Positions 5,678 through 63,750 of a stretch of DNA of 64,000 bases are shown here, piece after piece. Location: the NCBI GenBank assembly GCA_041666745.1, contig JBAYGI010000006.1, forward strand, positions 3,474 through 67,473. Direction: 5' to 3'. Origin of the DNA: Candidatus Magasanikiibacteriota bacterium (GTDB lineage: Bacteria > Patescibacteriota > Patescibacteriia > Magasanikbacterales > GWA2-37-8). The notes beneath the pieces were generated by a model. The model saw only the letters and a program-made list of their open reading frames with translations, was not told the DNA's origin and searched no databases. Positions within the stretch are counted from its first letter, which is position 1; each line of letters starts with the position of its first letter. The position numbers and the translations under genes are program-made.

Positions 5678-5750
5678 TCGGGGTGACAGGGCTTGAACCT
5701 GCGGCCTTCTGGTCCCAAACCAGACGCTCTACCAACTGAGCTACGCCCCG
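5678..5750 (-). tRNA. tRNA-Pro (TGG)
   Basis: Cloverleaf folded by eye. Anticodon loop tttggga, G37, 7-bp acceptor stem with one mismatch. Confidence 0.8.
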
Positions 5751-5771
5751 AATTAAATTGTTTCCAGCCTA

Positions 5772-5843
5772 GTGCCGGGAGTGAGGATCGGACTCACGAC
5801 GCAAGGCTCTTCAGGCCTTCGCTCTACCACTGAGCTACCCCGG
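5772..5843 (-). tRNA. tRNA-Phe (GAA)
   Basis: gccggggtagctcagtggtagagc... with anticodon loop ctGAAga and T-arm gttcgatcc. Confidence 0.85.
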
Positions 5844-5862
5844 CAATTTTCCTTGTAGCTTA

Positions 5863-5935
5863 GTGGACCGACAGGGATTCGAACCCTGGACCCCCGCGTT
5901 GCAAACGCGGTGCTCTACCAGCTGAGCTACCGGCC
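5863..5935 (-). tRNA. tRNA-Ala (TGC)
   Basis: G3:U70 wobble in the acceptor stem (Ala identity element). Anticodon loop ttTGCaa. T-arm ggttcgaatcc. Confidence 0.85.
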
Positions 5936-5943
5936 CAAAAAAC

Positions 5944-8256: not shown

Positions 8257-10651
<2,395 letters not shown>

Positions 10652-16709: not shown

Positions 16710-16779
16710 TTTTCTGATACAGTATATTCAGGTAACAAGAAACTCGGGACAAATCCGCCGAAAGGGGAAAGCCGTAAGG

Positions 16780-17349
16780 CTACCGAGTCATCTGACCGTC
16801 CACAAGCTGGACGGTTATTTTTTTCTCAAATAATTTAGTTAATTTAATAGTTTGCTCTGTGGAATTATCTGCGTGAGAACGAAATAATCCTGCGATTGCG
16901 TCCGCTAATCTCAAGCCCGCCGACGCTTCGTCCCTTAACAATCTAATTTTCTTTACAGAAATATTTTTATCACGCAAAACCTTTTTTAGTTTTTGTTCAT
17001 ATCGTTTTGACTTTTTACCATCTATAATTATTTTTTTAATATTGTGTTCTATTATTAAATGCTGAAAAATATTTTCAAAAGCAATATTATAATTTATTGG
17101 ATTATTTACAATGGCTAGTTTAAAAGAAAAATCCAAATTACTCACTACAGTAAGAAAACTTGCTCGTTTTTTCCATCCATTTGTTGAACCATAATCCGAC
17201 CAATGAAACGGTTTTATGCATAATAATTTTTCTACTTCAACAACCGCTTCTTCCATTTCTTTGATACTTTTTGCTTGTAAATAAACAAAAGAAATAGTTG
17301 AATGCCCTACTTTTTTATGAATACCTGATTCGTCTATAAAAATTATCAT
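16780..17349 (-). CDS. DUF3800 family protein
   Basis: N-terminal MIIFIDESG signature. Confidence 0.55.
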   Translation of the reverse strand: MIIFIDESGIHKKVGHSTISFVYLQAKSIKEMEEAVVEVEKLLCIKPFHWSDYGSTNGWKKRASFLTVVSNLDFSFKLAIVNNPINYNIAFENIFQHLIIEHNIKKIIIDGKKSKRYEQKLKKVLRDKNISVKKIRLLRDEASAGLRLADAIAGLFRSHADNSTEQTIKLTKLFEKKITVQLVDGQMTR

Positions 17350-19466: not shown

Positions 19467-22142
19467 TTATTTCATTTCCCCCCAGCTATGCCCAATATTC
19501 ACCTCCACCTTCACCGGCACTCTCAGTTTCACTACATTTTCCATGGTTTCTTTTACCATTTGACTCACTTTTTCCTCTTGTCCTTTTTTTATTTCAAATA
19601 CCAACTCGTCGTGCACTTGAAGAATCATTTTTATTTCTTCGTTGCCGGCAATCGCATCTTGCACGTCGATCATCGCCAGCTTGATCAAATCCGCCGCCGT
19701 ACCCTGAATCGGATGATTGATCGCCATACGCTCGGCCGCGCTTCGCAACTGAAAATTCTGCGACTTTAATTCTGGAATATATCGTCGGCGCCCAAACAGA
19801 GTCTCACAATATCCTTCTTTTTTGGTGAACTCCAAAGTCTGATCGATGTATTTTTTCACTCCACTAAATTGTTCAAAATATTTTTTAATAAAATCTTTCG
19901 CCTGTTCATGTGAAATTTCCGCGCGCCAACTCAGACCATAGGTACCCATACCATACAGCACGCCAAAATTTATCTCTTTGGCGCTACGACGCATTTCTTT
20001 GGTTACCTGTTCCAAGGGCACATTATTTATCGCCGCCGCTGTAGCTTTGTGAATATCCAAATCTTTTTCAAAAATTTCCATCATTTTTTTATCTTGTGCC
20101 AATGATGCTACAATACGCAATTCGATTTGACTATAATCCGCACTCACCAATATGTTTCCTTTTTCCGCCACAAATGTTTTGCGCACCTCACGCCCAATCT
20201 CGGTCCGAATCGGAATATTTTGTAAATTTGGATCAGAGCTGGACAGTCTGCCGGTGGCTGTGACCGCCTGATTAAAAGTCGTATGAATGCGTCCGGTTTT
20301 TTTGTTGATTAGGGTCGGCAAAACATCTACATAAGTATTTTGCAATTTGGACAACTCGCGATAAATTTCAATCTCATCAATAATCGGATGCAACCCCCGC
20401 ATTTTTTCAAGCTGTTCCGCCGAAGTGGACAGGCCGGTCTTGCCTTTTTTAATTCCCTCTACCGATATTCCCAATTTGTCGAATAGCACTTCACGCAATT
20501 GCAGTGGCGAAGAAATATTAAATTCCATGCCCGCTAAATCAAAAATCTTTTTAGAAACTTTTTTAATATTTTCATTTACTTCCAAAGATAATTTTTTCAA
20601 CATTTCCAAATCCACCGACACGCCATTTAATTCCATTTGCGACAGGGCAAAAATCAGAGGCATTTCTATTTTTTGCATCAAACCTAGGTTGTCTGTTTTT
20701 TCCAATTCGTTTTTTAATTTATCGACAGTTTGATTTAACAAAAATAATTCTTGAGCGATAGCTTTGGCATCCACTCCAAACAAACTTTCTTGACCACTCC
20801 CTACTTTCAATTCTTTTCCCAAAACTTTCAATACCACGCTGGCGCTATCATGAGCGCGACTGCCCGGATTAAGCAAATATGATCCCACCATTACATCAAA
20901 CAAAGAATTGTTTATCTCTTGTTTTTGTAACAATAAAACCTTGATCAGTTGTTTCAAATCATGACCAACCAATTCGATTTTTTCATCCGCGAAAATCGGC
21001 AAAAATTCCTCTACCAAATTATTTTTTATATAGCAACCTTCATTTTCTACTATCACCACCAGGCCCAACAGACTGCTGGTCAAAACATCCTTTCCATTCA
21101 ACACCGCTTTGCAGGCAAACTGTTTTTGTTTTTTAATTTTTTCAACCAACTCTTTTATCTCATTTTTATTTTCTACTTCTTTAAATTTTAAATCCGCTAT
21201 TTTTTTACTTTTGGTTGTTTTGTTTTTTTCCGGTTCACCTTCTATTATATGTTCGAATCCGGGGATGCGTTTAAGCAGAGAAACAAATTCAAATTTTTGA
21301 AATAGTTTGATTATTTTTTCACGATCAAATTCACTGATCGCGCAATCGTCTAGTGTAAAACGCAAGTCCGGTACCGCACAATCTATGGCTGCCAATTCAT
21401 AACTCATCTGGGCGCTTTTTTCTCCATCAACTAATTTTTGCAAAACCGAAGCGCTAAACAATTCGCTTTTCTTTTTTTCTTTTTCCTTATACACCACTTT
21501 ATATATTTCTTTTAAATCACCAAATTTCAAAATTAGTTCCGTAGCGGTTTTTTCACCAATCCCCGGTACACCGGGGATATTGTCCGAGGCATCACCACGC
21601 AATGCTTTGTAATCTATTACCAACTCCGGCCCAAAACCAAAACGTTTTTTTACTTCGTCCGGATTATACACCACCACATCGTTCATGCCTTTGCGCAAAG
21701 TAAATACTTTTATTTTTTCATCTACCAACTGCAAGGTGTCCATATCCCCCGTCACTATAAACACTTCGTCGACTTCAGATTTTACTTTTTTTACCACCGT
21801 ACCGATAACATCGTCCGCCTCAAAACCCCTTTTTTCATAAATCGGAATACTAAAGGCCTCCACCACTTCATGAACCATCGGCATTTGATCATATAGTTCT
21901 TGGTCGGCTTTTACTCTCGTGCCTTTATATTTTTCATATTTTTCATGACGAAAAGTCCCGCCAGCGACATCAAAACTCACACACAAATGAGTGGGTTTTA
22001 AATCTTTCCAAACCTTGAGTAACATGGAAGTAAATCCATACACCGCATTGACCATCACTCCGTCTTTGGTGTGCATTGGAGGAATAGCATGATAGGCGCG
22101 ATGCACAATAGCATTGCCGTCTATTATTACAAATTTTTTCAT
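19467..22142 (-). CDS. polA: DNA polymerase I
   Basis: 891 aa with a 5'-3' exonuclease N-terminus and a PolA family polymerase domain. Confidence 0.9.
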   Translation of the reverse strand: MKKFVIIDGNAIVHRAYHAIPPMHTKDGVMVNAVYGFTSMLLKVWKDLKPTHLCVSFDVAGGTFRHEKYEKYKGTRVKADQELYDQMPMVHEVVEAFSIPIYEKRGFEADDVIGTVVKKVKSEVDEVFIVTGDMDTLQLVDEKIKVFTLRKGMNDVVVYNPDEVKKRFGFGPELVIDYKALRGDASDNIPGVPGIGEKTATELILKFGDLKEIYKVVYKEKEKKKSELFSASVLQKLVDGEKSAQMSYELAAIDCAVPDLRFTLDDCAISEFDREKIIKLFQKFEFVSLLKRIPGFEHIIEGEPEKNKTTKSKKIADLKFKEVENKNEIKELVEKIKKQKQFACKAVLNGKDVLTSSLLGLVVIVENEGCYIKNNLVEEFLPIFADEKIELVGHDLKQLIKVLLLQKQEINNSLFDVMVGSYLLNPGSRAHDSASVVLKVLGKELKVGSGQESLFGVDAKAIAQELFLLNQTVDKLKNELEKTDNLGLMQKIEMPLIFALSQMELNGVSVDLEMLKKLSLEVNENIKKVSKKIFDLAGMEFNISSPLQLREVLFDKLGISVEGIKKGKTGLSTSAEQLEKMRGLHPIIDEIEIYRELSKLQNTYVDVLPTLINKKTGRIHTTFNQAVTATGRLSSSDPNLQNIPIRTEIGREVRKTFVAEKGNILVSADYSQIELRIVASLAQDKKMMEIFEKDLDIHKATAAAINNVPLEQVTKEMRRSAKEINFGVLYGMGTYGLSWRAEISHEQAKDFIKKYFEQFSGVKKYIDQTLEFTKKEGYCETLFGRRRYIPELKSQNFQLRSAAERMAINHPIQGTAADLIKLAMIDVQDAIAGNEEIKMILQVHDELVFEIKKGQEEKVSQMVKETMENVVKLRVPVKVEVNIGHSWGEMK

Positions 22143-22148
22143 AAAAAA

Positions 22149-22176
22149 TTGTCATTCCCGCAAAAGCGGGAATCTA
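22149..22176 (+). repeat. hairpin repeat family 1, copy b (left terminal inverted repeat of the mini-cassette)
   Basis: ttgtcattcccgcaaaagcgggaatc. Confidence 0.6.
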
Positions 22177-22340
22177 ACCAATATTTTACTATTCTTTCCC
22201 TTTTTTAGCAAACCCGCCTTCGCTAAAGCTACGGCGGGTAAAACAAAAAAATCACCTGGCGGTGAAATAGTAGGGCGTCGGGCAGGGGTGTCATGTCCCC
22301 CTGCCCGACGGAAGTCCCGACAGCTCGCTCGATCACGGAG

Positions 22341-22478
22341 CTACGGGAAACGGTTGCGGTTTCGGGCCTCGGCGTTCATCTCGTACTCATCGTAGCTGCT
22401 GCGGGCGTGGCTGCAGTTGTTGACGAGCTTCTCGCACTGCGCGTCGGTCATGATGTACTCGGTCTCGTTGCGAAACAT
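22341..22478 (-). CDS. 45-aa Cys-containing peptide inside the GC-rich mini-cassette
   Basis: AAGGAG RBS 8 nt before the ATG. Translation MFRNETEYIMTDAQCEKLVNNCSHARSSYDEYEMNAEARNRNRFP. GC about 60%. Confidence 0.35.
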   Translation of the reverse strand: MFRNETEYIMTDAQCEKLVNNCSHARSSYDEYEMNAEARNRNRFP

Positions 22479-22587
22479 GAGAATGCTCCTTGCTCGGGTT
22501 GCTTCCTCCGACCTGCTTCCGCCCCAACGAGCGAATATGACAGGTACAGATAAGAATCATTTTATATGAGAGAGAGATAATAGTCAA

Positions 22588-22612
22588 GATTCCCGTTTCC
22601 ACGGGAATGACA
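22588..22612 (-). repeat. hairpin repeat family 1, copy c (right terminal inverted repeat, inverted orientation)
   Basis: Reverse complement is tgtcattcccgtggaaacgggaatc. Confidence 0.6.
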
Positions 22613-22630
22613 ATAAACAACAAAAAAACA

Positions 22631-22732
22631 AAACCGCCACAGAAAATTACTTTTGAGCGGGTTATGCGCCGAGGCGCATCCTTTTGCCCTCGCGGGCAAA
22701 AAAAGCGAAAAAGTCATTTTCTGTGGCGGTTT
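22631..22732. repeat. R3 structured element copy 1, inside an 18-bp inverted-repeat terminator stem
   Basis: Core 22653-22710 is ttgagcgggttatgcgccgaggcgcatccttttgccctcgcgggcaaaaaaagcgaaa. Flanks aaaaccgccacagaaaat / attttctgtggcggtttt followed by a T-run. Confidence 0.6.
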
Positions 22733-22769
22733 TGTTTTTTACCCATCTTACCTAAAACGCCATATTAGA

Positions 22770-22841
22770 GGTACCGGTGGGAATTGCACCCACGCATAAG
22801 GGTTTTGCAGACCCTTGTCTTACTGCTTGACGACGGTACCA
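22770..22841 (-). tRNA. tRNA-Cys (GCA), atypical T-loop
   Basis: Perfect 7-bp acceptor stem ggtaccg/cggtacc. U73 discriminator (Cys identity). Anticodon loop ctGCAaa. T-loop TGCAATT carries G at position 55 instead of U. Confidence 0.55.
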
Positions 22842-26373: not shown

Positions 26374-26409
26374 TTTCTTTAATTTTATTCAACCGTCCGT
26401 TCCACTTTT

Positions 26410-26472
26410 GTCATTCCCGCGAAGGCGGGAATCCAGTCGCTCGTTACTGTCATCCTGAGTATAGCGAAGGAT
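26410..26472 (+). repeat. hairpin repeat family 1, tandem copies d1 and d2
   Basis: tgtcattcccgcgaaggcgggaatcc plus the diverged tgtcatcctgagtatagcgaaggatcc. Terminator at 26487-26534. Confidence 0.55.
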
Positions 26473-26641
26473 CCCTTAAATCCATTTTCACAACAGAACA
26501 AAAACCACCGACCAATCACCGGTGGTTTTTTATTTGAAAAGGCACTATCCCCATTGACTTCTTTCTTTTTTTTAATTAGTATGAAACCTAATGTTCGTGG
26601 CTAAACTCTAACCACGAAACCCAACCACCAGGAGAACTGAC

Positions 26642-27013
26642 ATGACCCTGAAATCCGAGCTCGTGGCAATACGCCAAGACAAGCAGGAAAGTCGCGACAG
26701 AGAGGACCAGAGGATAGTTCAGGAGAGTCACGACCACATGACTGCTCTGATCGACAACCTCCCTGACATGCTGAGGGCACAAGCCCGACTCAACGGCGGT
26801 ACGTTGTGGGTCAGCACATGCTACACCACCCATGTGAAGTGCGTGGTTCGTGACGAGGAAGGGGAAGACACTGTGTGGCACAGTGAGAAGACTTATTTCA
26901 CAGGGGCAGACTGGAGACGACTGGAAGTGTGGGTCCGGGAAAACGGCCTCCAGATGAATCGTCATCCAGATCAGGCCGCTGGGGGTGCGCCCTTGTACGG
27001 GATTGAGCCCTAA
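26642..27013 (+). CDS. hypothetical protein on GC-rich island E
   Basis: AGGAGA RBS. TTGACT-17-TAGTAT promoter at 26544. 123 aa with no recognised family. 11-bp-stem hairpin at 27027-27056. Confidence 0.5.
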   Translation: MTLKSELVAIRQDKQESRDREDQRIVQESHDHMTALIDNLPDMLRAQARLNGGTLWVSTCYTTHVKCVVRDEEGEDTVWHSEKTYFTGADWRRLEVWVRENGLQMNRHPDQAAGGAPLYGIEP

Positions 27014-27127
27014 CTCCAACCAACATGTCCCACTCGCACAGGCGAGCGAGTGGGACAGAGGCAATAGTATCTACATTGATCACTCGCCACGTAATTTGAA
27101 AATATTTTAAAATATGTTTTCAGATTA

Positions 27128-61627: not shown

Positions 61628-61660
61628 AAAATACCGTTTGCCAGTTAGCAAACGGTATTT
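61628..61660 (-). terminator. terminator hairpin after uvrD
   Basis: aaaataccgtttgc...gcaaacggtatttt. Confidence 0.5.
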
Positions 61661-63750
61661 TATAAGTCATCAATATTTCGCAGGAAGCTACCCGGAGTGA
61701 TTTTAAAAGGCTGGTCTTCCGGAATATATTGAATCTCACCATCATCGTTGTCAAAAACCGTACTTTTGTAGGATAAAATAGAATGGTCGTCGATTAAATC
61801 TTGGCTAATTTCGGACAAAAACAGGCTCGGTCCGGCGGTGGAACCCCAGCTTTCGGTGGACATTGGATAGGTTAAAAAAAGATGTTTTTTGGCACGAGTG
61901 ATGGCCACATAAAACAATCGGCGTTCTTCTTCCAGTCCGTTTTGTTCGGACATAGCGCGACTGTTTGGAAAGGCATCATTGGCAATGTTGATAATAAATA
62001 CCACCTCCCATTCCAAACCCTTGGCCTGATGAATGGTGGACAAAACCAATCGTTTTTGTTGTTCATTTTGTTTTTGGTTGATGGTTGTTGATTTGGCAAA
62101 TGATTCTTGCAAGCTAGCCTCAGACAAAAAGTCCGAAAGATTTTTATGTTTGGCCGCAAAAGTCGCCATTTGTTCCAAATCTTTTTTTCTGTCTTCGCTG
62201 TCTAGATATTCAGAAGTGAGGTATTCGCTGTAACGAGAATTTATAATAGCCTCAACCAAATCACCGGGATTATTTTCCGGAACATACGATTCCAGTAGTA
62301 CATTAAAAATTTTCAGGAAATTATTGAAACCGGTTTGAGCTTTACCACCCAATATTTGTCCGAGATTTTTTAATTCATCAACGTTTTCCAGTTTTTGGAC
62401 AGCTTCGATAATTTTCTTAGCGGCCGATGAACCGACCCCTTCTTCGTGCAGTAACACTCTCAACCATGCGGTAGAATCAGACAGATTGTTTAAAATACGC
62501 AAATATCCCAGCACATCCTTGATATGGGCGCGATCAAAAAATCGCAAGCCACCACGATAATCGTACAATATTCCAGCTTTGGCCAGCTCCATTTCCAACA
62601 TTTGTGAGTGGTGGGCGGCGCGAAATAGCACGGCGATGTGGTGAGGGGACGTGCCTTGATCAATTAACTCATTTATTTTTTTAACTACAAAACTCGCTTC
62701 GTCGGACTGATCGTTTTTGGGATACAAGTTTGGTTTTATGCCTTCAGCTTTTATCGCCTTCAATTTTTTTGGATATTGGTGTCGATTGTTGGCGATCACT
62801 CCATTGGCCAGAGATAAAATTTCTTGGTGAGAACGATAATTTGTTTCCAGACGAAAAATTTTGGCATCCGGATATTTTTCTTCAAAGTTTAAAATGTTTT
62901 TTATATCGGCCGCGCGGAAAGAATAAATACTTTGTGCGTCATCGCCAACCACCAAAATATTGCGGTGGATTTTGGCTAACCTATCAATAATATTGGCTTG
63001 TAATTTGTTGGTATCTTGGTATTCATCCACCAAAATATATTGAAATTGATTGGAAAATTTTTCTTGAATTCCCGGGAGGTTCAACAACAAAGCCAAATTG
63101 ATGAGTAGGTCATCAAAATCCATGGCATTTGCTTCTTTTTTCTTTTGTTCATAGCGAGAAGAAATATCCCCGATAGTTTTGGACAAATGCCACCAAGCGG
63201 AAAATTTATCTTCAACTGTTTCCTCGATGCTTTTTTGTGAATTACGGGCAAAACTGATAATCGCGCCAACCACTTTGGCCGAAGGAAAACGCTCGGTAGT
63301 TTTAAATTCTTTAATACACATTTTTATCAAAGCCTGACTATCGTCGGCATCTAAAACCGTAAAATTATTTTTGTATCCCAAATGTGTGGCAAAGATTCGT
63401 AATATTTTATTGGCAATATGATGAAAAGTTCCTGACCATGGCAGAATGTTAGTGTCATTCCGACTGAGCGAAGCGAGTGGAGGAATCTCTTGGTTTAAGG
63501 GATTCCTTGGCTGTGCTCGGAATGACATCAATCTTTGGACGCGTTCAATCATTTCTTGAGCGGCACGATTGGTAAAAGTAACCAACAAAATATTTTCCGG
63601 TGCCACGCCTTTTTCCAATAAATAGGCAACTCGGTAAGTTATGGTGCGAGTTTTGCCCGAACCGGCTCCAGCCAAAACCAAACATGGGCCGTCACCGTTT
63701 AAAACGACGTCCTGTTGTTCTTTGTTCAGTTCTTGTTCAAAATTAATCAT
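61660..63750 (-). CDS. uvrD: UvrD/PcrA-family superfamily 1 DNA helicase
   Basis: Motif I AGAGSGKT, Ia TFTNRAAQEM, II VDEYQDT, and the rest of the helicase motif set. Confidence 0.9.
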   Translation of the reverse strand: MINFEQELNKEQQDVVLNGDGPCLVLAGAGSGKTRTITYRVAYLLEKGVAPENILLVTFTNRAAQEMIERVQRLMSFRAQPRNPLNQEIPPLASLSRNDTNILPWSGTFHHIANKILRIFATHLGYKNNFTVLDADDSQALIKMCIKEFKTTERFPSAKVVGAIISFARNSQKSIEETVEDKFSAWWHLSKTIGDISSRYEQKKKEANAMDFDDLLINLALLLNLPGIQEKFSNQFQYILVDEYQDTNKLQANIIDRLAKIHRNILVVGDDAQSIYSFRAADIKNILNFEEKYPDAKIFRLETNYRSHQEILSLANGVIANNRHQYPKKLKAIKAEGIKPNLYPKNDQSDEASFVVKKINELIDQGTSPHHIAVLFRAAHHSQMLEMELAKAGILYDYRGGLRFFDRAHIKDVLGYLRILNNLSDSTAWLRVLLHEEGVGSSAAKKIIEAVQKLENVDELKNLGQILGGKAQTGFNNFLKIFNVLLESYVPENNPGDLVEAIINSRYSEYLTSEYLDSEDRKKDLEQMATFAAKHKNLSDFLSEASLQESFAKSTTINQKQNEQQKRLVLSTIHQAKGLEWEVVFIINIANDAFPNSRAMSEQNGLEEERRLFYVAITRAKKHLFLTYPMSTESWGSTAGPSLFLSEISQDLIDDHSILSYKSTVFDNDDGEIQYIPEDQPFKITPGSFLRNIDDL
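63448..63532. repeat. family-1-related palindromic element inserted in frame inside uvrD
   Basis: 11-bp termini tgtcattccga / tcggaatgaca. Inner hairpin ggaatc/gattcc. Encodes the extra peptide FRAQPRNPLNQEIPPLASLSRND between helicase motifs Ia and Ib. Confidence 0.65.

Follow-up and report, generated by a model that had tools for sequence, protein, structure and literature searches.

A gene for a PcrA/UvrD-type helicase of superfamily 1 (SF1) in Candidatus Magasanikbacteria carries, inside its reading frame, a pair of hairpin repeats that close relatives of the gene lack. We studied this gene in a stretch of 64,000 nucleotides (contig JBAYGI010000006.1, positions 3,474 to 67,473 of the forward strand), hereafter called the window, which has a G+C content of 0.40 and comes from a metagenome-assembled genome of the Candidate Phyla Radiation (CPR)/Patescibacteria. 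The inserted element occupies positions 63453-63527 on the minus strand and is 75 bp, or 25 codons, long. It is a head-to-head dimer (tags outward) of TGTC-tagged repetitive extragenic palindromic (REP) units and belongs to the CGTC/TGTC-tagged REP superfamily. Very probably, a resident REP dimer landed in frame in a permissive loop of the PcrA/UvrD protein. In-frame REP insertion is already published for other phyla. What is new here is the CPR host and the recurrent insertion site at the loop between helicase motifs Ia and Ib; a literature search on in-frame palindromic or REP elements in CPR/Patescibacteria found no report.

The host gene (61660-63750, minus strand) is an intact open reading frame (ORF) of 696 amino acids, so the statement of the preliminary description of this DNA that the element leaves the frame undisrupted is correct. 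The protein is a UvrD/PcrA SF1 helicase by both its domains and its conserved motifs. Pfam identifies UvrD-helicase (3.3e-78) and UvrD_C (8.1e-60), every family-invariant residue is retained, and the PDB entry 1pjr (PcrA) is matched at E 2.7e-114. The AlphaFold2 (AF2) model of the protein has a mean pLDDT of 83.4 and gives TM scores of 0.80/0.86 against the PcrA-DNA complex 3pjr_A.

Orthologs were compared using the best 120 helicase homologs (P0001-P0120), with 119 aligned orthologs in the insert counts. TFTN (motif Ia) and TFH lie 53 residues apart in the window helicase, versus a modal 31 among the 120 homologs. The net gain is thus 22 residues, which is the size that had been estimated beforehand. 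In the alignment with PcrA the gap falls exactly between ERVQ.L and W.STFH. Ten relatives are 84-87% identical to the window helicase over conserved columns, and the alignment with close relatives at this level of core identity, which had been proposed as a check, shows that they lack the segment. In particular, seven full-length insert-free relatives (P0003-P0008, P0010) have a 31-residue loop with conserved LT[NG]T..PLPW, and P0002 and P0009 have one 25-nt hairpin each in the same place. An alignment with the DNA of three relatives leaves a clean gap at the element, and excision of the 75 nt in silico yields the in-frame sequence ...RVQRL/TNILPW... (the slash marks the junction). We considered whether the P0001-P0010 clade had one ancestral insertion that was later lost from some members, and rejected this: the seven insert-free relatives have exactly the modal loop length, and the three insert-bearing members of the clade carry different units at slightly different codons.

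The 75-bp element is confirmed as an insertion and shows no sign of being an assembly join. The two protein halves flanking it have identical nearest relatives, the gene order around the helicase matches that of relatives on both sides, and the identical helicase protein is recorded by four sources (NCBI, JGI, ENA and Logan). The neighbours are a tRNA-guanine transglycosylase (TGT) gene upstream and a response regulator gene downstream; the same arrangement is found in two of the related loci (L001 and L003).

The ends of the element are formed by the arms TGTCATTCCGA (63453-63463) and TCGGAATGACA (63517-63527), both given for the plus strand; on the mRNA strand the latter is read as TGTCATTCCGA, at the element's 5' end. 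The arms are 11 nt long and 100% complementary. The two facing unit bodies form an inner hairpin, AGGAATCTCTT / AAGGGATTCCT (63481-63507), in which 63481-63491 pairs with 63497-63507 at 10/11 positions (91%) with 5 nt between the arms. The preliminary description had recognized the 11-bp inverted repeats and the inner hairpin, but it had placed them in an element of about 85 bp at 63448-63532, and these edges have to be moved inwards to the 75 bp given above. Unit A, the first in the mRNA, is 27 nt long (63501-63527, minus strand), reads TGTC-ATTCC-GAGCACAGCCAA-GGAAT-C and is a decayed version of the consensus TGTCATTCCGAGCGAAGCGAGGAATC with about five changes. Unit B is 35 nt long (63453-63487, plus strand) and reads TGTC-ATTCC-GACTGAGCGAAGCGAGTGGA-GGAAT-C; it is lengthened and retains the GCGAAGC core. 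A 13-nt spacer (63488-63500) separates the units, whose tags point outward (63453-63456 and 63524-63527). Compared with shuffled sequence, the element folds strongly both as RNA (z = -4.07) and as single-stranded DNA (z = -5.0 for one strand and -7.6 for the other). Rfam searches gave nothing relevant for the whole window at the gathering threshold and no match for the element at E up to 10, and a terminator scan found no terminator-like feature.

Related units occur elsewhere in the window. There are five exact copies of TGTCATTCC versus 0.63 expected, and none of 100 shuffles reaches five. A search for TGTC plus a hairpin found seven units in the 64 kb, five intergenic and two in the helicase, and all copies share the layout TGTC + ATTCC... 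+ ...GGAATC. The kinship to intergenic hairpin repeats that had been claimed for the element therefore stands on an exact shared motif and a shared TGTC layout. The search for further copies, likewise suggested earlier, showed that the repeat termini align with the five intergenic units and with head-to-head doublets of like architecture in other genomes.

The first intergenic unit, TGTCATTCTCGCGAAAGCGGGAAT with tail CTA, lies at 9669-9692 (plus strand) between a stop codon at 9704 and a likely start at 9663 on the minus strand. The second, TGTCATTCCCGCAAAAGCGGGAAT, has an 8-bp stem and a 4-nt loop and lies at 22150-22173 (plus strand), directly upstream of the start codon of DNA polymerase I. 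The third, TGTCATTCCCGTGGAAACGGGAAT, is on the minus strand at 22589-22612. The fourth, TGTCATTCCCGCGAAGGCGGGAAT, lies at 26409-26432 (plus strand) 3' of the H+-pyrophosphatase gene, with tail CCA at 26433-26435. These four units are built as TGTC + ATTCCCGC + 4-nt loop + GCGGGAAT + tail CCA, CTA or CTT. The fifth, TGTCATCCTGAGTATAGCGAAGGAT (26448-26472, plus strand), is of the G-A-mismatch type and forms a sister subtype together with both helicase units. The consensus of this subtype is TGTCATYCYGAGCGAAGCGARGRATC, with a tandem G-A stem mismatch around the GCGAAGC core; it has 9 pairs only when the tandem mismatch is counted. The tails are CCA, CTA or CTT at intergenic units, CCC or CTC at the helicase units, and CCA or CTA in relatives. 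Three short ORFs of the window (22071-22208, 26385-26519 and 22562-22717) are mere translations of REPs (LSFPQKRES, DWIPAFAGMT, CHSRGNGN) and represent the type of spurious "hypothetical proteins" that arises in annotation.

CGTC-tagged REPs were defined by Di Nocera, De Gregorio and Rocco in 2013 (BMC Genomics 14:522; PMC3733652). According to that work, the tag is often TGTC or CCTC, the 8-9 bp stem opens with A-T pairs, the loop has 4-5 nt, and there is a CCA-like tail; the head-to-head arrangement prevails among dimers, and no transposase is linked to these REPs. The window family agrees with this description in the TGTC outer tag on both helicase units and all five intergenic ones, in the A-T/T-A start of the stem, in the short tail of CCA consensus, in the head-to-head dimers, and in being a multicopy family that is dispersed and mostly intergenic within the 64 kb. 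The published stem and loop geometry is shown by the units at 9669, 22150, 22589 and 26409 (8-bp stem ATTCCCGC/GCGGGAAT, 4-nt loop). The same study equated CGTC-1 with RPE-6 of Rickettsia conorii and dRS3 of Neisseria, and CGTC-4 with RPE-4. Thus the superfamily, which is spread over many bacterial phyla, includes the Rickettsia palindromic elements RPE-6 and RPE-4 as well as Neisseria dRS3.

The survey in PMC3733652 covered five phyla, mostly Alphaproteobacteria, and no CPR genomes. CGTC REPs were mostly intergenic there, but in-frame copies were also found, more than half of them in dimers or groups encoding 20-30 residues, with an excess in genes of DNA synthesis and repair, including UvrD/REP helicases. 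The UvrD/REP cases are single units (residues 278-288 in R. palustris and residues 914-923 in K. olearia), and the helicase sites described here differ from them in position. Recurrent targeting of one loop across lineages is not reported in that study, apart from the recB genes of Xanthomonas.

The preliminary description had likened the element to the in-frame Rickettsia palindromic elements. The comparison is correct and even literal, rather than an analogy, because peptide types from PMC3733652 recur in the helicase loop of CPR bacteria. Its supplementary table lists the R. conorii REP peptides SFPRKRES, VIPAKAGI, DSRFRGND and WIPAFTGMT. The first three types, which are those of RPE-6, are matched in the loops of CPR relatives, for example by DSRFRGND (P0002), DSRLHGND (P0009) and VIPATAGI...VGND (P0022). 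The window insert itself (SFRAQPRNP...SLSRND) represents a sister subtype and is not CGTC-1 proper. The Rickettsia elements (Ogata et al. 2000, Science 290:347) are also in-frame palindromes in housekeeping genes of a reduced-genome, host-dependent bacterium, although of a different phylum. RPE-1 is longer, about 105-150 bp (PMC3184786), and is set apart from our element by size and not by sequence comparison.

The element also resembles several other kinds of repeats. Like REPINs (Bertels and Rainey 2011, PMC3116915), it consists of two inverted REP hairpins with a short spacer that form one long hairpin. A REPIN is a presumed mobile unit with a GTAG tag, accompanied by a single-copy RAYT (REP-associated tyrosine transposase) gene flanked by REPs, and is described as extragenic (PMC3116915). 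Here the tag is TGTC and not GTAG, and no single-copy gene for a RAYT (a Y1 HUH transposase) flanked by REPs was found in the window or in the seven related loci (L001-L007). In-frame repeats of the MITE (miniature inverted-repeat transposable element) type (Delihas 2007 and others reviewed in PMC3184786) are likewise small non-autonomous repeats with open frames in, or fused to, protein genes; MITEs, however, have terminal repeats similar to those of insertion sequences together with target-site duplications, whereas our element is built as a REP dimer and has no duplication. The short window hairpins ATTCCCGC-GAAG-GCGGGAAT fit the pattern of Neisseria dRS3 (ATTCCC-N8-GGGAAT). The dRS3 repeat is a component of intergenic mosaic elements and an insertion target of prophages and insertion sequences. 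It is not known to occur as in-frame coding inserts.

The unit is widespread beyond the window. Its exact 26-nt form TGTCATYCYGAGCGAAGCGARGRATC is present in at least 120 stretches (L008-L127) among species-representative genomes. The hosts among the matches listed belong to more than ten phyla: Acidobacteriota, Nitrospirota, Chloroflexota, Bacteroidota, Firmicutes, Gemmatimonadota, Verrucomicrobiota, Planctomycetota, Armatimonadota, Proteobacteria and CPR groups. Eight exact head-to-head doublets of 76-89 bp share the build of the window element; doublets of this build occur in Acidobacteriota, Gemmatimonadota and Mucilaginibacter. The exact 26-mer was also found in 66 IMG/VR viral contigs (L128-L193).

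Insertion at the motif Ia-Ib loop is recurrent. At least five extra residues are present at this loop in 29 of the 119 orthologs, and Fitch parsimony on a neighbour-joining tree places "absent" at the root and requires no fewer than 22 changes. Considering all internal inserts of at least 8 residues in these helicases, 29/77 (38%) are in this loop; smaller clusters are found around core positions 435-470, 540 and 210. The loop inserts come from several families, including TGTC REPs of both subtypes, a GGTCTWC-heptamer palindrome (STVYRPQ...RSPK), GEVSSP...GGTPPL types and others. In each of six insert-bearing orthologs whose DNA was inspected, the site is palindromic, and head-to-head units with tags outward are also seen in the L004-L006 elements. 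Among the related loci, the inserts correspond to the repeats resident in each genome: L001 has neither units nor an insert; L002, L003, L005 and L006 carry inserts and have units within genes as well as in spacers; L007 has a different repeat family of its own, present in the helicase and also in a spacer. The heptamer family forms inverted arrays at L007 10217-10312 and in the spacer 20378-20403 of the same contig, and it occupies the same helicase loop in P0064, P0067, P0075 and P0093. In P0001 residue numbering, these further sites of recurrent insertion are at about 227, 290, 455-465, 487, 558, 633 and 679. Many inserts at these other sites show repeat-type peptides (CHSERSEES..., ...GRND, SAQGGPASGG, PLL.KEG), and some orthologs, e.g. 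P0042, P0090, P0098 and P0107, have three or four inserts per protein.

The helicase is not the only protein affected. The neighbouring TGT gene has REP-derived in-frame inserts in five relatives, at three loops (L002 6783-8060, L003 7877-9091, L004 8052-9284, L005 7886-9259 and L007 8059-9321). The inserted peptides include VIPAKMGI...DSRLHEND, SFPQKRES...SGMT and VIPSEAKESL...GRDDN, and the TGT of L002 also has an N-terminal extension with DSRFRGNN. Since inserts are found in both the helicase and TGT, REP insertion is a genome-wide habit rather than a peculiarity of the helicase.

The element runs from position 2 of codon 75 to position 1 of codon 100 and encodes residues M75 to D99, MSFRAQPRNPLNQEIPPLASLSRND, in which Pro, Ser and Asn are abundant. 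Of the three coding-strand frames through the element, a single one is stop-free, and the gene uses that frame; one frame of the ...GGAATGACA end always yields TGA. In this loop the ...ND frame is used 11 times versus once for the ...GMT frame. Several of the ...ND-frame inserts are related by descent and GMT-frame inserts are present in TGT, so the bias is only suggestive of selection at the peptide level. The same GMT-frame inserts weaken the notion of exclusive tolerance for the hydrophilic ...ND frame. If the insert is translated, the predicted tryptic peptide NPLNQEIPPLASLSR would mark it.

A mapping of the insert onto a structure, with a surface loop expected, had been suggested earlier. 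In the AF2 model, coil extends from the helix 61-76 up to the strand 106-107, with two stretches (residues 79-83 and 90-99) in which pLDDT drops under 50. The prediction for the insert, residues 75-99, is thus a floppy, disordered loop in low-confidence coil after the motif Ia helix and before the TFH strand. Judging by the model, it probably lies on the protein surface.

We suggest the following course of events. A copy from the genome's own repeat pool would have inserted in the codons of the loop that joins the motif Ia helix to the W-x-G-T-F-H strand, as comparison with relatives suggests, once the lineage had separated from its nearest sequenced relatives. It would have been retained because 75 nt is divisible by three and because the frame in which it landed is the only stop-free one on the coding strand. 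Transcribed and translated with the gene, it would add a 25-residue stretch predicted to be disordered and leave the helicase core undisturbed. The loop appears to be permissive. Related CPR helicases have gained inserts there repeatedly from several repeat families, so the best reading of these repeated gains is frequent insertion, with selection for an intact and functional protein acting as the filter. The preliminary description had supposed that the repeat "tolerates, or selects for, coding insertion"; tolerance in a permissive loop suffices, and selection is not established. By analogy with REPs and REPINs, the likeliest route would be a hairpin-recognizing enzyme acting in trans on single-stranded DNA. 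We know of no such enzyme or transposase for the CGTC/TGTC REP class. Pfam searches of the ORFs beside the intergenic repeats gave no transposase domain.

Several observations weigh against this course of events. A tblastn search with six RAYT sequences from the supplement of PMC3733652 gave no match in the 64-kb window or in L001-L007, and in 186 unit-bearing stretches only three distant RAYT-like matches were found, none of them flanked by units. Single units are 25 nt long and one doublet is 68 nt long, and neither length is a multiple of three; therefore in-frame survivors needed extra bases or later indels, and the process was not a clean cut-and-paste of a fixed unit. The helicase units themselves deviate from the published geometry: they retain 5 canonical pairs, have G-A mismatches in addition, and leave 12 and 20 nt between the arms. 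Only full-length proteins were retrieved, which makes disruptive insertions invisible, and so the insertion rate at the loop is inseparable from tolerance. We infer solely from the intact ORF that the insert is translated with the gene. Two caveats concern the identification of the element itself. A motif search tolerating one mismatch shows no enrichment (16 found versus 15.2 expected), so only exact matches of the motif are informative. An 11-nt inverted repeat, moreover, is not rare by itself in this A+T-rich gene: 196 of 2000 dinucleotide shuffles contain one. Because such a repeat alone is not rare, the case for the element rests on the coincidence of the palindrome, the exact family motif and the gap in the ortholog alignment.

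That frequency, about 10% of shuffled genes, is also what could be said for an artefact, i.e., a chance palindrome in an old lineage-specific loop; alternatively, the contig could be misjoined at the repeat, repeats being classic points of misassembly. We regard an artefact of either kind as very improbable, since the family motif is exact in the arms and related elements are present at this site in relatives, while the shared nearest relatives of both protein halves, the gene order conserved on both sides and the identical protein in four sources speak against a misjoin. We give even less credence to removal of the segment after transcription or translation in the manner of an intron or an intein. 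The strong RNA hairpin would suit it, but 75 nt is too short for a group I/II intron, and 25 residues, lacking a Pfam domain, are too few for an intein. The element has no Rfam family match and displays neither a catalytic RNA fold nor splicing blocks; its use of the only open frame would be unexpected if it were spliced out.

Two further readings accept the insertion and differ on its cause or consequence. The DNA at the loop might be a landing pad favoured by the insertion machinery, and not merely a place where the protein is tolerant: the TTGAC of the Leu-Thr codons resembles the ...TGACA terminus of the element, or an earlier REP may act as bait, REPs being known targets of insertion sequences (PMC3184786). 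The concentration of 38% of internal inserts in one loop is in favour of this, as are the start of the window, L004 and L005 elements at the same Leu codon, the reconstructed empty site TTGAC in the window, and the nested or clustered units at the loop in P0036 and P0047. Nevertheless, junctions vary by several codons among lineages, unrelated repeat families with different termini also land there, and other loops of the helicase and of TGT are hit as well. There is no target-site duplication either, as the flanks ...GATTGA and CTAACA... (coding strand) contain no direct repeat. On balance we consider targeting a minor possibility. The insert could also have been exapted, its peptide or its mRNA/DNA hairpin serving the cell, e.g., in binding a partner of the helicase or in expression of a repair gene. 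This would accord with the over-representation of REP inserts in DNA synthesis and repair genes (Di Nocera et al., PMC3733652), with termini that are perfect over 11 nt around a decayed interior, and with the 11 to 1 preference for the hydrophilic ...ND frame over ...GMT. However, the presence of inserts is patchy even at 85-91% identity, their sequences and families vary by lineage, the model has low confidence and no conserved structure there, the GMT frame occurs in TGT inserts, and there is no terminator-like feature. An adaptive role for the insert is unlikely, and exaptation in this sense is to our mind distinctly improbable. The in-frame landing of a resident REP dimer in a permissive loop thus remains our preferred explanation. 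A bolder version would combine three claims: that the CPR motif Ia-Ib loop is an actively targeted landing site for hairpin repeats, that CPR proteins are remodelled genome-wide as in Rickettsia, and that a pan-bacterial repeat (an identical 26-nt core in more than ten phyla among the matches listed, present also in viral contigs) is moved by an unrecognized enzyme. We think this combination is doubtful.

Some other features of the window were recorded around the intergenic units. The inverted units at 22150-22173 (plus strand) and 22589-22612 (minus strand) flank about 415 bp, within which lies an islet of 58-60% G+C (about 22200-22500) in a genome of 40% G+C. The islet looks like foreign DNA trapped between two REPs. 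It contains a 45-aa ORF (22341-22478, minus strand; MFRNETEYIMTDAQCEKLV...); three overlapping ORFs at the islet gave no Pfam match in a search that excluded the 45-aa ORF. Directly downstream of the H+-pyrophosphatase gene and the REP pair 26409-26472 there is a second G+C-rich islet (55-57%, 26600-27100). Its 123-aa ORF (26642-27013, plus strand) is without a convincing match in Pfam, and Rfam gave no match there. A long imperfect palindrome (22623-22740; 45-nt arms, 84% complementary, 28-nt centre) sits between the REP ending at 22612 and a tRNA gene at 22769-22840. The window also contains an Rfam match to DUF3800-II RNA at 16732-16797 (57.6 bits) and three clustered tRNA genes at 5678-5936.

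The in-frame insertion of REPs that is known from Rickettsia and some Proteobacteria is common in CPR/Patescibacteria, which are another reduced-genome and host-dependent group. Some of the length variation of CPR housekeeping proteins, in particular of the helicase and TGT, is traceable to resident hairpin repeats. For annotation this means that peptides such as SFRA..., VIPA..., CHSE..., ...RND and ...GMT in conserved proteins flag repeat inserts and not domains. The 26-nt core of these CGTC/TGTC REPs is nearly identical across many phyla, and no transposase is known for it. The repeated gains at one helicase loop provide a natural data set for distinguishing insertion preference from protein tolerance.

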